Shown here: positions 47,638 to 53,600 of the stretch, one piece after another
How positions within the stretch are numbered: position 1 is the stretch's first letter
Layout of the letters: every line of letters starts with the position of its first letter
Origin: Escherichia coli
Lineage (GTDB): Bacteria; Pseudomonadota; Gammaproteobacteria; Enterobacterales; Enterobacteriaceae
DNA length: 64,000 bases
Direction: 5' to 3' (one strand)
Assembly: GCF_001677475.2 (NCBI RefSeq)
Contig: NZ_CP015229.1
Program-made: the position numbers

Positions 47638-50600
47638 CGAAATTAGTTGCCGATCATTTAATCGCGGCAAACCTGGCAGGGCATGATTCTCATGGTATTG
47701 GCATGATCCCAAGCTATGTGCGTTCCTGGAGTCAGGGGCATCTGCAAATTAACCATCATGCCAAAATCGTTAAAGAGGCGGGGGCGGCGGTCACGCTCGA
47801 TGGCGATCGCGCATTCGGTCAGGTCGCGGCACACGAAGCGATGGCGCTGGGGATTGAGAAAGCGCATCAGCACGGTATTGCTGCCGTGGCGCTACATAAC
47901 TCGCATCATATCGGCCGTATCGGTTACTGGGCGGAGCAGTGTGCAGCGGCGGGGTTTGTCTCTATCCACTTTGTTAGCGTGGTCGGTATTCCAATGGTCG
48001 CGCCGTTCCACGGTCGCGACAGCCGCTTTGGCACCAATCCGTTCTGTGTGGTTTTCCCTCGTAAAGATAATTTTCCGCTGTTGCTTGATTACGCCACCAG
48101 CGCCATCGCATTTGGTAAAACTCGCGTCGCCTGGCATAAAGGCGTCCCCGTGCCGCCAGGTTGCCTGATTGACGTTAACGGCGTGCCGACGACCAATCCG
48201 GCGGTAATGCAGGAGTCGCCGTTGGGTTCGCTGTTGACCTTTGCCGAACATAAAGGCTACGCCCTTGCAGCGATGTGTGAAATTCTTGGCGGGGCGCTTT
48301 CCGGCGGTAAAACGACGCATCAGGAAACGTTACAAACCAGTCCCGATGCCATTCTTAACTGCATGACCACCATCATCATCAACCCGGAACTGTTCGGCGC
48401 GCCGGATTGTAGCGCGCAGACCGAAGCCTTTGCCGAGTGGGTAAAAGCCTCGCCGCATGATGAGGACAAGCCGATTTTGCTACCGGGCGAGTGGGAAGTG
48501 AACACGCGTCGCGAACGGCAGGAGCAGGGGATTCCATTGGATGCGGGAAGCTGGCAGGCCATTTGTGATGCGGCGCGGCAGATTGGTATGTCGGAAGAGA
48601 CGTTGCAGGCTTTCTGTCAGCAGTTAGCCAGATAAAAAAAGCCCGTCCAGTAACGGACGGGCAAACAAGGGTAACATAGGATCAATGAGGGTTAGAGCAT
48701 ATGCGTCTGTCGGCAAACAGACAGGGAAATACTTGTGCTGAACGTAGCGTAAACGCCTGATCCGTCCAACGGTTCGGATTTTGTAGGCCTGATAAGATGC
48801 GGTAGCGTCGCATCAGGCATTTGTTGCCGGATGCGGCGTAAACGCCTTATCCGTTCTACGAATTACTTATAAATTACCGCAGTACCGCTTAATTTATTGT
48901 TGTTGGTGGCGGAAGTAATGCTGTATCCACTAGCACCGGCTGCTGCCGCTTTCTCAGCCAGTTTTGCTTCCAGGGCATCGAGGGTGGATGCGCCATCGGC
49001 AGAAACCACGCCGATTTTATTCATGTTCTGTGCCTGGGATGCCGTTACCGGTTCCGCCGCGAACACGCCAAATGACAGAGTTGAAAGAGCCATAGCAGCA
49101 ACAACAGTATTGATAGTTTTCATAATTAATCTCTCGCAGGTGATTTTTGTATAAGTGACGTTGTTTCGTCGATGTGATGAGTATCACGTTTTTTTACGAG
49201 AGATAAAATAGAAGAGAATTGACCGCCTTGTTCAAATAAATTGATTGATATCTAACATACTGATAAACCATTTATTTGTTGTACTTATGGAATTGTTTTA
49301 TGCAGCGTGGCAGTCACAGCAGCGTTAAAGGCACGGAATGCCACGCAAAATACAAATTATACTCGCTATGCATCTCGCCAGTTGTAGTTAACGTAACTGG
49401 CTGTCTTTCGAACCTCTGAGATTATATCCTGTATAAGCTGGTTTTTGTAAATCTTTCTCCTGCTGACAATGAATGCATAAGCGCACGCCAGGAATGGCTT
49501 CCCGACGGGCTTGCGGGATGGGGGCACCGCACTCTTCACATTCATACAGGCTTTCGCCACGCGGAATTTCACCCCGAGCGCGGGCAATCGCATCTTCAAT
49601 TGTACTGTTGATCTGTTCGTTGACGGCGTCATCGTTAGCCCAACCGGATGCCATATCGTCCTCCCCATATCAATACTTGTACAGTTAAGTGTAGCTAATA
49701 TAGGGACGAACTCGGGCAGTTCAAGCGTCAGATCTCCGACCATTCCCGCAGCAGATTATGATAAAGATTAAGCAGCGACAGGATCTCTTCACTTTCGCCG
49801 TAGCGGCTTTTCAGCGACTGAATATTGTTGTCCAGTTCAAACAGCATGGCGCGCTTTTTATCATCGCGGATCATCGACTGGATCCACATAAATGATGCCA
49901 CTCGTACGCCGCGGGTTACGGGTGTCACGCAATGCAGGCTGCTGGAGGGATACAACACGAGATCGCCTGCCGGGAGTTTTACCCGATGTTGTCCGAAGGT
50001 GTCATTAACGACCAGTTCGCCGCCGTCGTAGCTTTGTGGATCGCTTAAAAACAGCGTGGCAGAAAGGTCAGTGCGCATCCAGCCGTTTTCTGGATGGCTG
50101 CGTACTGCGCCATCCACATGAAAACCATAGGTTTCATTGTTCTGATAGCGATTAAACAGCGGCGTGGAAAGGGTACGCGGCAAGGCCGCGGCAAAGAACA
50201 AAGCATGTTGGTTAACCGCGTTCAGCACCTCATTTTGCAGGGCGGCGTATAATGTGCTGCGGGTGTCGACCTGTTGATTGTTCTTAACTTGCGCACCTTG
50301 TGCGCCGGTGGTGACACGTCCATCCACCCATTCGGCTTGTTCCAGTTGTTCGCGAAACCGGGCGACGTCCTGTGGCGATAACACGCCGGGAATGTGGTAC
50401 ATCATACAAGTTCTCCAAAAAGTGGGGCCTGCGCCCCACATCTGAATCAGAAATGCATATTGGCTGTGAGCAAGAAGGTTCTTGGCTCGCCCGGGTGATA
50501 ACGGTAGCCGCTCTTGTTGATTGAGGCGACGTAATCGGTATCAAACAGGTTGTAGACGTTTAGCTGGAAGTCGAGATTGCGATTAACCCGATACCCCAGT

Positions 50601-53600
50601 TTGGCGTCGGCGACCCAGTAACCTTCGGTAAACGCTGGCGTTCCCACCGCGCCGTCTGAACCTTTATGCATACTGCCGATATAGCGTGCGCCCGCGCCAA
50701 CAGAGATATCATCGGTTGCCTGATATTGGCTCCATAAGGTGAAGGCGTGCTCCGGGGTATACGGCAGCGATGAGGAACCATCCTGGGCAACATCTTTGCC
50801 GTTTTTGATGGTTGCTTTTTGCTGGGTATAGCCGCCAATCACCTGCCACGCGGGAGTGATATTCCCGGCCACGGATATCTCATAGCCTTCGACGCGTTTC
50901 TTACCGTATTGCGAGTAAGTCCCGTCATCATTTTGCTCAACTTCATTTTCGATATCAGTACGGAACAGCGCGGCGGTGAGCAACAGGCGTTTATCCAGAA
51001 CCTGCCATTTGGTGCCAATCTCGCTGGTGTTGGCTTTTTGCGGTTTAAAATCGGTGCGGTTGGCACTGTTACCGCTGCCAGACTGCGCAAGGGCGAAGTT
51101 GTTGCCGCCCGGAGGCTGCTGGGAAACGGCATAGTTAATATAGACATTGCCGTTTTCCGTCAGGTGATACAGCGCCCCGGCTTTCCAGTTCACCAGATTG
51201 CCCGACTTGGCGGTGTCGACGGTGGTGACCGGAGAACCTTTTGCCACACCAGCAGGGCAGGTGATGGCACCGCGTCCGCTGCCGCCGCAGGCGGTGGCAC
51301 TGTCATATTCAGTATGATAATTATCCAGACGGATCCCGCCGTTCAGCTCAAAATCACGGGTGATTTGCAGAGTATCGAAGGCGTAAATTGCGAAGGTATC
51401 CGTCTGTCCATTGGCGTTTGCGCCGTTGCGCGTCAGGCCGCCGGGATGAATGCTGCTGTCAGGATGATAAATATTTACCGCAGGTAACGTCACCGGATTA
51501 ACGCCGTAGTTAGTCTGCGTTTCACGGGTAAATTCCACGCCGGTACTGACATCATGACCGATAGAACCGGTATAGAACGTCGAGGTCAGGTTGGTCTGGT
51601 TGGTGAGAATTTTATTACTCACATCTTTGGTATTCGCCGTGCGTGACCAGGTCCAGCTATTCACATCGCTGGTGGGCTGAGTAATATTCGACGCCCCGCC
51701 CATAATCGCCGTCATCAGGTAATCCTGCTTTACGCGCGACCAACGAGTAGTATTGCGAATGGTGGTGTTATCGTTGATGTCGTGCTCAAAACGCATGGTG
51801 GCGGTGTCGGTGGTCGAATCGTCGTAATCGGAATCCGTGCCGTAATAGTTATGAGTATCCACTTTTCCGGAATGATTCAGGGCCGCCGTTCCCGCAGATG
51901 GGGCAGAATAGCCCGGCAAACCTATGGTCGGAATGCCGCCGTCTGGCGTGTTGTGCTGGGTGACATGCAGATAATTAAGATACAAACGACTCGCTGTACC
52001 AAGGCCAAAAGCGACAGAAGGGGCGACGCCGTAACGCTCATTTTTGACTTTGTCGCGTCCGGCATCGTGCGTTTTTTCGCCCATTACATTCAGGCGCACC
52101 GCGGTGGTATCACCAATGACCTGATTGACGTCCAGCGTGCCGCGGCGGAACCAGGCGCTGCCAATACTGGCGGAGGCGTCAATGCCGGAATCATTGCGCG
52201 GCTGTTTGCTGATCATATTGATCGAGCCTGTCGGTGCGCTGCGCCCGTAGTCGGTGCCGGACGGCCCTTTAATCACTTCGACCTGCTCGGTATTGAAGGT
52301 GTCTCGCGAGACGCTGCCGATATCGCGAATGCCATCAATATAAATACTGTTAGAGGTATCGGCACCACGCATATAAATGGCGTCGCCAGTGGTGGAGTTA
52401 CCGTTCTCACCCGCAAAAAACGCACCCACGCCGGGGACGTTTTTGAGCGCGTCGGTAAGGTTGGTTGCGCCCTGATCTTTAATCACTTGTTCAGAAATCA
52501 CCGTCATCGTGCGGGTAGTATCCGCTACCGGACGCGAGAATTTCGGATCGGCAGATTGTTGTGGCGCATAAAGCGAAGGCGTTGATGCTTCGACAACCAG
52601 CGTGTCATCCGCGTTAGTTTGCCCTTCGGCGGCGAGTGCCTGAGCCACAGGCGTGATGCCAATACAAAGACCGGCAAAGAACGTGAGCGAATGAAATTGT
52701 CTGGCAGGGAAATTGCGATTGTTTTCCATTTTGCAGGTGACTTTTTCTTATATGTTGAAATTTTCACTGCCACGAGAAAGCCTCTCTGCGGATGCGATGC
52801 CACTGTTAATCTTGTGATAGTGTTCGTGCAAGTGATAATAATTTTGATAAGCATTATCACTTGGCGCGATTTTCTATCACCCATTGCGCGAAAAAGAAAT
52901 ACATTTATTTACATTGCGTTCATATTTGATGTTTTTTTGATTACAAAACAGGCGAAAACTGCATCCAGAGGCGAATGCAGTTACGTTGGTGGGGTTATTT
53001 GTAGATGGTTGCAGTACCGAACATCTGGTCATTTCCGCCTGCGGAATTAATGACATAACCTTTCGCGCCTTGCTCGCGCGCTTTTTCTGCCAGTTTATCC
53101 TCCAGATCGCTTAGGTTTGATGCGCCAGTTGCCGAAACGGTACCGGCGGGCCGTAGCTGACCGCTGTCCAGGTTACTCATCGGTTGCGCGGCATAAGCCG
53201 TGAGAGAGATTCCGCTCAGGACGGTGGCAATCAGTAATGTGAGGCACTTTTTCATAATGACATCCTCATAAATACAACGGGTAGTGCCTGATAAGTGTAG
53301 GTCGCCTGCGCGATGAAAATGACGCAAAAAATTGACAGAGATGCGCTTATTTTTTGAACGATATATTTTTACAAAATAAGACAAATCAATGACATGCATA
53401 ATGCTGATTTTTATGATGAATTGCCATAAACCATAGTCATGTGAAGGTTTTTAGAAATGATAAACGCAGCCAGATATTTACCCTGTTGCGTTATGCGGGT
53501 ATCTTACGCCGCTGCTTAAAGGAGAATGCTATGTCCGCCCAGAAACCGGGGTTGCATCCGCGCAACCGTCATCACAGCCGCTACGATCTCGCCATGCTTT

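Follow-up and report, generated by a model that had tools for sequence, protein, structure and literature searches.

Evidence that the Fur-regulated fiu-ybiX pair of Escherichia coli is a cassette held within a separate array of small genes

Pairs of a Fur-regulated TonB-dependent receptor and a 2-oxoglutarate (2OG)/Fe(II) dioxygenase have been described in Pseudomonas aeruginosa (piuA-piuC) and Caulobacter crescentus (cciT-cciO), and fiu-ybiX of Escherichia coli is a pair of the same kind. We consider it here in a window of 64,000 nucleotides (nt) of E. coli contig NZ_CP015229.1 (assembly GCF_001677475.2; the window is the whole stretch analysed), where fiu and ybiX lie among the small genes mcbA, ybiI, and ybiJ. 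A sequence-only reading of the window had joined all five in one iron-stress/envelope module bracketed by two DUF1471 paralogs, ybiJ and mcbA. Our analysis makes it very likely instead that the interval is made up of four separately promoted transcription units, in which a Fur-repressed fiu-ybiX cassette sits within an unrelated small-gene array.

Much about the pair has been published. Two 2025 studies in Caulobacter found receptor and dioxygenase broadly co-conserved and functionally linked (bioRxiv 10.1101/2024.10.16.618771; PMC12004943), and cciT strictly requires cciO (bioRxiv 10.1101/2024.10.16.618771). E. coli ybiX and P. aeruginosa piuC are genetically linked to catechol-conjugate susceptibility (bioRxiv 10.1101/2025.02.14.638246; PMC12004943; PMC11878004). 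The cefiderocol minimal inhibitory concentration is raised in a delta-cirA delta-ybiX double mutant, and cefiderocol selected an insertion sequence (IS) between fiu and ybiX whose ybiX-type phenotype the authors attribute to ybiX being cut off from its promoter (bioRxiv 10.1101/2025.02.14.638246). Chromatin immunoprecipitation with exonuclease digestion (ChIP-exo) places fiu in the Fur core regulon (PMC10164565), fiu-ybiX has been treated as a Fur operon, and a fiu promoter-lacZ fusion has been measured with and without Fur (PMC4676285). The checks that had been proposed for this locus are thus largely in print, the operon and its iron regulation through Fur ChIP-exo and iModulons, and the catecholate-conjugate phenotypes through work on ybiX/piuC and cefiderocol and on Caulobacter cciT-cciO.

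The region mcbA-fiu-ybiX-ybiI-ybiJ is itself textbook E. coli. An open reading frame (ORF) scan finds the five genes on the minus strand at 48863-53255. The window is collinear with K-12 MG1655 at 98.2% nucleotide identity, the locus being K-12 b0806-b0802, with like gene order, spacers, Fur box, and hairpin and only allelic differences (for example Y37 and L79 in YbiI of the window, D37 and R79 in K-12). By megablast, 5416 of 5426 complete E. coli genomes contain the region, and the exact YbiI and YbiX sequences of the window recur in numerous assemblies of the species. In RefSeq, the corresponding E. coli region is annotated with the same five names, and each protein exceeds the cut-off of its own NCBIfam equivalog (YbiJ, McbA, YbiI, YbiX, Fiu); the gene identities first read from the sequence are upheld by ORFs, RefSeq, Pfam, and NCBIfam alike. 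The features on which the argument turns are these:

52995-53255, minus strand: mcbA (ybiM), putative periplasmic DUF1471 protein, 86 amino acids (aa) (ORF, PF07338, NCBIfam McbA, RefSeq)
52953-52985, minus strand: terminator-like hairpin 3' of mcbA, ACUGCAUUCG...GGAUGCAGU, then UUUUCGCCUGUUUUG (folding)
52828-52864, strand not applicable: array of four 19-mer Fur-box matches that overlap at a 6-bp stagger (consensus match count)
52853-52880, minus strand: promoter-like site of fiu, -35 GTGATA, 16-nt spacer, -10 GATAAT (consensus scan)
50447-52729, minus strand: fiu, TonB-dependent catecholate siderophore receptor, 760 aa (Pfam, NCBIfam, PDB)
50422-50439, minus strand: intercistronic GC-rich hairpin GUGGGGC-GCAG-GCCCCAC, followed by UUUUUGGAGA, lying after the fiu stop codon and ahead of the ribosome-binding site (RBS) of ybiX (terminator scan, folding)
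49728-50405, minus strand: ybiX, PKHD-type Fe(II)/2OG dioxygenase, 225 aa, a PiuC/CciO homolog (Pfam, NCBIfam, PDB)
49697-49724, minus strand: ybiI's own promoter, -35 TTGAAC, 16-nt spacer, -10 TATATT, C at -13 (scan)
49388-49654, minus strand: ybiI, TraR-like C4 zinc-finger protein, 88 aa (Pfam, NCBIfam, PDB)
48863-49123, minus strand: ybiJ, putative periplasmic DUF1471 protein, 86 aa (ORF, PF07338, NCBIfam YbiJ)

The fiu-ybiX cassette and its host array

In Enterobacter hormaechei, Klebsiella aerogenes, and K. pneumoniae, mcbA-ybiI-ybiJ lies as a contiguous array between rlmF and ybiB, and at this array none of the three carries fiu, ybiX, or a Fur-like site. We located these loci by tblastn of YbiI against records filed as plasmids, the matches being mis-filed chromosomes. 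The mcbA terminator hairpin of E. hormaechei is homologous to that of the window at 52953-52985, and the ybiI promoter (...CGCCTTGACTGTGCGTTTTTTAACCCCATATT...) follows it directly; this promoter is in turn homologous to a Leclercia sequence that starts a few bases 3' of the ybiX stop codon.

The pair likewise occurs without the array. We took 80 loci with YbiX relatives from species-representative genomes and mapped the window proteins onto each. In 78 of the 80, the gene directly 5' of ybiX, and on its strand, encodes a TonB-dependent receptor, and the pair ranges over Enterobacterales, Beta-, Gamma-, and Alphaproteobacteria, and one Aliarcobacter. By comparison, a ybiI gene 3' of ybiX is confined to Escherichia, Citrobacter, Leclercia, Silvania, Pseudocitrobacter, the Klebsiella oxytoca group, and Raoultella, and all five genes stand in the order of the window in Escherichia, Citrobacter, Leclercia, Silvania, and Raoultella. 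The receptor-ybiX pair stands without the small genes in Pantoea, Serratia, Rouxiella, Tatumella, and distant Proteobacteria; no ybiI follows ybiX in these four genera, in Kluyvera, or at the more distant loci, and the Kluyvera ybiX-ybiJ spacer holds no ybiI remnant even at E=10. DUF1471 genes occur at the cluster only in the rlmF/ybiO...hcxB/ybiB chromosomal context.

Because the array persists without the pair and the pair without the array, fiu-ybiX with its Fur promoter is a cassette of ~3.2 kb, bounded by the mcbA terminator and the ybiX stop codon. The two DUF1471 genes do flank fiu-ybiX-ybiI, as their coordinates confirm, and they do so because the mcbA terminator and the ybiI promoter of a resident mcbA-ybiI-ybiJ array stand on either side of the cassette; the genes are bystanders, and the bracket reflects the position of the cassette and not a shared function. 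In Citrobacter sp. Awk 4 (L042, 6723-7160), a 2.36-kb deletion has taken out fiu codons 1-718 along with the promoter and Fur box in front of them, leaving the last 42 fiu codons, the hairpin, and a frameshifted ybiX, and judged from its sequence this locus looks like a natural intermediate of cassette loss.

The distant loci examined, which have neither ybiI nor DUF1471 genes, often carry genes for a flavin mononucleotide (FMN)-dependent dehydrogenase, PepSY, and cytochrome b561 instead. A gene for an FMN-dependent alpha-hydroxy-acid dehydrogenase lies 3' of receptor-ybiX, on the same strand and within ~15 nt, at 15 loci outside Enterobacterales (L050, 7693-8793; L054, 7785-8630; and 13 more, mostly in Betaproteobacteria), and PepSY and cytochrome b561 genes follow the pair in 5-6 distant loci. 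This suggests a larger conserved iron-related cluster around receptor-ybiX outside Enterobacterales.

Fur control, the receptor-dioxygenase pair, and the hairpin between its genes

No site within three mismatches of the 19-mer Fur consensus occurs in the window, and we used a match-count scan with shuffles instead. The best match of the whole 64 kb, 15/19 at 52840-52858, lies 5' of fiu, and matches of 13-14/19 at 52828, 52834, and 52846 overlap it in 6-bp steps. Such phased hexamer arrays are the typical form of a Fur site. The array overlaps the promoter-like -10 element GATAAT of fiu, whose promoter is predicted at 52853-52880. Among dinucleotide shuffles of the window, only 11% contain a site scoring 15/19 or better; 5' of fiu, 46/46 Enterobacterales loci have one of 14/19 or better, in most of them at roughly -120 to -137 relative to the start codon. 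The Fur box earlier noticed before fiu is thereby borne out. Upstream of ybiJ or mcbA, the same scan finds no Fur-like site above 13/19. A 14/19 match at 49754-49772, ~100 nt 5' of ybiI, was rejected as a Fur site: it lies within the ybiX coding sequence (codons LLNLYHNL) and decays in other genera, and genomes that lack the cassette have no Fur box before ybiI.

Fiu carries the PF07715 plug and PF00593 TonB barrel of Pfam, scores 1504 bits against its equivalog NF007349 (cut-off 686), and matches the Fiu structures PDB 6BPM/6BPN/6BPO over residues 34-760; its transport of Fe(III)-catecholates is cited in bioRxiv 10.1101/2024.10.16.618771. The ybiX ORF reaches 50441, and the annotated, conserved start is ATGATG at 50405. 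YbiX combines PF13640 (2OG-FeII_Oxy_3) with PF18331 (PKHD_C), scores 518.6 bits against NF003972 (cut-off 399), and has structural homologs in PDB 3DKQ and in PiuC (9GHL/9QN0-4; PiuC match E 2e-69). At H96, D98, H158, and R168, 97% or more of 81 homologs with 47-100% identity have the same residue. Because the H-x-D...H iron triad and the 2OG-binding arginine are kept, YbiX is very probably an active dioxygenase, and its earlier description as an Fe(II)/2OG-type hydroxylase agrees with Pfam, NCBIfam, and these residues. A literature search found no substrate reported for YbiX, PiuC, or CciO. We note that a 90%-identity protein cluster containing the YbiX of the window also holds full-length Fiu, its representative being a Fiu sequence; this is probably a clustering artefact, perhaps from gene calls fused over the short spacer.

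That spacer measures 41 nt, contains no promoter-like site by consensus scan, and carries the hairpin at 50422-50439, which folds at -19.3 kcal/mol (z -3.9). Across Enterobacterales the fiu-ybiX spacer is 41-67 nt long and holds an intercistronic hairpin, whereas many distant loci have a gap of ~10-30 nt. Alignment with MAFFT and RNAalifold misaligned the differing stems into a meaningless 4-pair consensus, and we replaced it with folding of each sequence and comparison with shuffles. So analysed, 40/40 distinct Enterobacterales spacers have a stable stem-loop just 5' of the ybiX RBS, built from 19 different 5' stems (mean z -3.0 against dinucleotide shuffles) with pairs such as GTGGGGC/GCCCCAC, GCGGGGCG/CGCCCCGC, CGCCGCAG/CTGCGGCG, and CGCCACCTG/CAGGTGGCG, and mostly with GNRA or UUCG loops. 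The U-tract that follows is good in Escherichia and some Kluyvera and poor in Citrobacter. Such hairpins are often seen where one operon encodes both an abundant envelope protein and an enzyme. We infer that this one is a leaky terminator or 3'-end stabiliser; its conservation is a modest new detail.

Some lineages show further changes here. Escherichia sp. MOD1-EC7003 and E. whittamii have a ~170-nt insertion resembling repetitive extragenic palindromic (REP) sequences or bacterial interspersed mosaic elements (BIME) in the hairpin loop (L003, 4775-4991; L004, 6785-7001), together with a new GC hairpin just before the ybiX RBS, and in one E. coli genome the matched 6-kb region includes an IS621 element.

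The small genes ybiI, mcbA, and ybiJ

The promoter of ybiI keeps its -10 form CTATA(T/A/C)T in most genera. Its dependence on sigma-S has been established by quantitative reverse transcription PCR, gel shift, and KMnO4 footprinting, with the sigma-S holoenzyme preferred for open complex formation (Peano et al.; PMC4447067), and genomic SELEX (systematic evolution of ligands by exponential enrichment) with sigma-S RNA polymerase (RNAP) gave a peak in the ybiX-ybiI spacer (PMC5493296). The Fur-1 iModulon nevertheless includes ybiI with fiu and ybiX (PMC10164565), serum raises all three together (PMC4145685), and the operon has been given as fiu-ybiX-ybiI (PMC12004943). A terminator scan finds no terminator-like site between ybiX and ybiI, and therefore read-through from the fiu promoter is the simplest explanation for both the iModulon membership and the serum induction. 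The proposal that fiu-ybiX-ybiI is iron-regulated as a unit thus stands for fiu-ybiX as a Fur operon and for the co-variation of ybiI, and needs amending where ybiI has a sigma-S promoter of its own. Predicted folding of 49655-49730 (minus strand) adds a possible layer: in read-through RNA, the ybiI RBS GGGGAGG pairs with CCCUAUAU of its own promoter region, giving an unpaired probability of 0.06-0.10, versus 0.4-0.5 in the own-promoter transcript (~90% versus 50-60% paired). The pairing shows one compensatory change in E. whittamii and is not kept in all genera. On this folding model, an RNA switch may hold the RBS paired in read-through transcripts and leave it freer in those from the ybiI promoter.

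YbiI was earlier called DksA-like, and as a member of that zinc-finger family it is confirmed, although it is not DksA proper. It matches zf-dksA_traR (PF01258) at 47 bits versus 24.9, with C39, C42, C60, and C63 of a CxxC-N17-CxxC finger invariant, and the TraR-family model TIGR02419 at 62.8 bits versus 59.7. It falls below the TraR equivalog NF010268 (50.4 versus 108 bits) and DksA TIGR02420 (20.2 versus 115.5), and its score against its own equivalog NF008243 (156 bits versus 96) marks a distinct subfamily. PDB 2KGO is YbiI itself; TraR 6N57 matches at E 7e-11.

TraR is a secondary-channel regulator of RNAP in which D3 and D6, at the tip of the N-terminal helix, matter in reaching the RNAP active site. 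F-plasmid TraR (PDB 6N57, 5W1S) and YbiI share a C4 zinc finger after an N-terminal helix, and they differ in several respects. In our alignment, TraR D3 and D6 stand opposite YbiI S3 and A6, while YbiI D8-D9, 2-3 residues further in, are largely kept; YbiI runs on at its C-terminus for 13 residues, GYNRRGSKDSQLR, with no counterpart in TraR; and ybiI is chromosomal and sigma-S/Fur-linked, whereas traR is part of the tra operon. The YbiI N-terminus MASGWAND... and the tail YNRRGSKDSQLR are near-invariant from E. coli to Proteus and Halomonas. Proteus mirabilis and Halomonas carry ybiI as a stand-alone chromosomal gene with no iron genes or Fur box nearby (L085 and L086, both at 6001-6264). At least 80% of YbiI is matched by 553 phage records, and in the three lytic phages checked (Proteus Privateervirus, Acinetobacter ABPH49, Klebsiella Slopekvirus), the tail is invariant. 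Full-length phage genes of this type (L087, 1144-1401; L088, 301-558; L089, 301-558) have a similar N-terminus. According to Blankschien et al., who mention it as data not shown, overexpression of YbiI relieves a dksA mutant of its amino-acid auxotrophy (PMC2613031). In the window, YbiI has Leu79 within the otherwise invariant motif and Tyr37 where K-12 has Asp; because 246 E. coli contigs carry exactly this allele, it circulates within a lineage and is no sequencing error.

As had been described, YbiJ and McbA are alike in form: both are 86 aa long, end in GTAVIYK and GTATIYK respectively, and are 47% identical over their full length (E 1e-22), with PF07338 scores of 64.8 and 69.8 bits (gathering score 27) and NCBIfam equivalog scores of 173 and 174.5 bits (110). 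By eye, both have hydrophobic N-termini, candidate Sec signal peptides, that end in FA/AEP and YA/AQP. Solved structures exist for DUF1471 domains (PDB search). BhsA/YcfR and other DUF1471 (YhcN-family) proteins share domain, size, a putative signal peptide, and the GTAxIYK end at identities of 43-47%, and the unlinked paralog BhsA is 43% and 47% identical to McbA and YbiJ. A recent local duplication is rejected, each being as similar to BhsA as they are to each other. To our knowledge, no biochemical activity is known for the DUF1471 stress proteins BhsA, McbA, and YbiJ. Their regulators differ, with McbR for mcbA, YhaJ for ybiJ, and another, ComR, for bhsA, which comR adjoins.

Published work bears on both genes of the window. 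McbR is cited as the repressor of mcbA in PMC4092069, and the hairpin behind mcbA at 52953-52985 folds at -14.6 kcal/mol (z -2.9; folding of that strand). YhaJ activates ybiJ and binds its promoter in electrophoretic mobility shift assays, and mutations at C-120 and T-112/-111 abolish the YhaJ-dependent induction of ybiJ by hydroquinone (PMC5031710). The YhaJ box in the window coincides with these positions. YbiJ fused to msfGFP, a green fluorescent protein, is envelope-localised, and DUF1471 proteins are described as envelope-located and RcsF-like (bioRxiv 10.1101/2025.02.11.637708). Neither ybiJ nor mcbA appears in the gene table of the Fur-1 iModulon (PMC10164565). E. coli has ~10 DUF1471 genes, and Salmonella has YbiJ and lacks McbA (PMC4092069). 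With ~10 paralogs per genome, we calculate a chance of ~0.08 that two fall within ~4.2 kb; the bracketing is real and statistically not striking. Two further features lie on this side of the locus:

49232-49244, minus strand: YhaJ (LysR-type) box TCA-N7-TGA, 109-121 nt 5' of the ybiJ ATG (read from sequence)
48633-48856, minus strand: 3' region of ybiJ, with a REP element at 48786-48856, the small RNA (sRNA) zbiJ at ~48633-48729, and a bidirectional terminator at 48641-48662

The REP element scores 67.2 bits with Rfam naRNA4, and in an Rfam scan of 47000-55000 only this REP-derived match reached the curated threshold. The sRNA zbiJ (minus strand) and a 19-aa ORF, ybiE (48701-48760, plus strand), were transferred from the MG1655 annotation by collinearity, and the terminator, found by terminator scan, is common to the ybiJ side and hcxB. 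In Kluyvera, the 456-457-nt ybiX-ybiJ gap (L025, L027, L030; ~7679-8134) keeps a TCA-N7-TGA YhaJ-type box, and upstream of ybiJ there is an AT-rich stretch, TAATAATCAATAAATTAATAATCATTC, that is Fur-box-like by look.

Competing readings and significance

We propose that the four units would work as follows. McbR would control mcbA, which ends at its own terminator. With iron present, Fur would occupy the GATAAT-like hexamer array over the -10 element of fiu; with iron absent, the fiu-ybiX pair would be transcribed, the hairpin as leaky terminator or 3'-end stabiliser yielding more fiu than ybiX message. With the aid of TonB, Fiu would carry Fe(III)-monocatecholates, as well as catechol-drug conjugates, through the outer membrane, and cytoplasmic YbiX would be needed for a productive pathway, probably acting on the imported catecholate or on another protein or metabolite; such a step is probable by analogy with CciT-CciO and PiuA-PiuC. 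The third unit, ybiI, would be driven by its own sigma-S promoter and by read-through from the fiu promoter, and the fourth, ybiJ, would be activated by YhaJ, with mcbA and ybiJ serving as independent periplasmic stress genes.

Several points weigh against this scheme. The leaky termination and the read-through into ybiI are both inferences, and the hairpin may stabilise RNA instead of terminating transcription, because the U-tract is poor in several genera (TCTCAGG in Citrobacter, for example). Phenotypes of E. coli ybiX mutants could in part be effects on ybiI, and the analogy with CciT-CciO is imperfect because Caulobacter CciT does not import cefiderocol. The history of the insertion or deletion may have run either way, with repeated losses of an ancestral cassette or with a later insertion carried between lineages by recombination.

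The five genes are adjacent on one strand, keep their order in five genera, and include two for envelope proteins likened to RcsF (bioRxiv 10.1101/2025.02.11.637708), as might be expected if all of them formed a single iron-stress/envelope module in which the DUF1471 proteins assist Fiu from the periplasm. We find this hardly credible: promoters, regulators (McbR, YhaJ), and terminators are separate (PMC5031710, PMC4092069), Fur-like sites 5' of ybiJ or mcbA never exceed 13/19, both genes are outside the Fur-1 iModulon table (PMC10164565), array and cassette each occur without the other, the paralogs are no closer to each other (47%) than to unlinked BhsA (43%, 47%), and their proximity has a chance of ~0.08. 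The single module posited by the sequence-only reading is therefore not sustained. Nearly as improbable is that the fiu-ybiX hairpin is a complete terminator, or a mere REP-like DNA element, with ybiX not co-transcribed with fiu. The GC-rich stem of Escherichia, with the U-run behind it, would fit the former, and the REP-like element at the hairpin position in Pseudocitrobacter, like the REP/BIME insertions in the loops of two Escherichia lineages, the latter. Yet the spacer has no promoter-like site, the U-tract is weak in many genera, ybiX is Fur-regulated along with fiu (PMC4676285, PMC4145685), the IS insertion in the spacer gives a ybiX-type phenotype (bioRxiv 10.1101/2025.02.14.638246), and the published operon assignments imply a bicistronic transcript, while GNRA and UUCG loops point to a role at the RNA level.

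A stronger competitor, although we still think it unlikely, makes ybiI a third gene that truly functions within the Fur operon and whose product is an RNAP secondary-channel factor made in iron starvation to reprogram transcription. The terminator-free ybiX-ybiI spacer, the Fur-1 iModulon (PMC10164565), serum induction with fiu and ybiX (PMC4145685), the published operon description (PMC12004943), TraR homology, and the dksA-mutant rescue on overexpression (PMC2613031) all speak for it. Opposed to these are the conserved sigma-S promoter of ybiI (PMC4447067), its occurrence without fiu-ybiX or a Fur box in Enterobacter, Klebsiella, Proteus, and Halomonas, its absence, without remnant, from the Kluyvera cluster, the predicted ~90% pairing of its RBS in read-through RNA versus 50-60% in own-promoter transcripts, and the alignment of the acidic D3 and D6 of TraR to S3 and A6. 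A mosaic in which the Fur-repressed cassette adjoins an independently promoted ybiI accounts for the locus better, in our judgement.

The locus is of clinical interest: Fiu, together with CirA, gives cefiderocol and other catechol-conjugated drugs one way into the cell, and losing ybiX or piuC is among the causes of resistance; both points are already recognised in the literature. The organisational point added here is that the conserved functional unit is the receptor-dioxygenase pair only. Since the cassette lies inside an unrelated array, phenotypes of fiu-region mutants should be read with ybiI read-through in mind, and a role of the DUF1471 genes in iron uptake is not to be assumed. More modest additions are the hairpin kept throughout the Enterobacterales spacers and the recognition of YbiI as a TraR-like subfamily with a C-terminal tail shared with phages; the YbiI-subfamily and RBS-pairing points are leads, not findings. 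Such a class may be marked by the invariant tail Y-N-R-R-G-S-K-D-S-Q-L-R and an N-terminus M-A-x-G-W/F, found alike in chromosomal genes from E. coli to Halomonas and Proteus and in hundreds of lytic phages. It is a speculative and rather improbable suggestion, drawn from sequence comparison, that YbiI represents a distinct, widespread class of TraR-like RNAP regulators placed under joint Fur and sigma-S control by the upstream cassette. If true, it would couple iron starvation to transcription reprogramming like that by DksA and guanosine tetraphosphate (ppGpp) in E. coli and its relatives.

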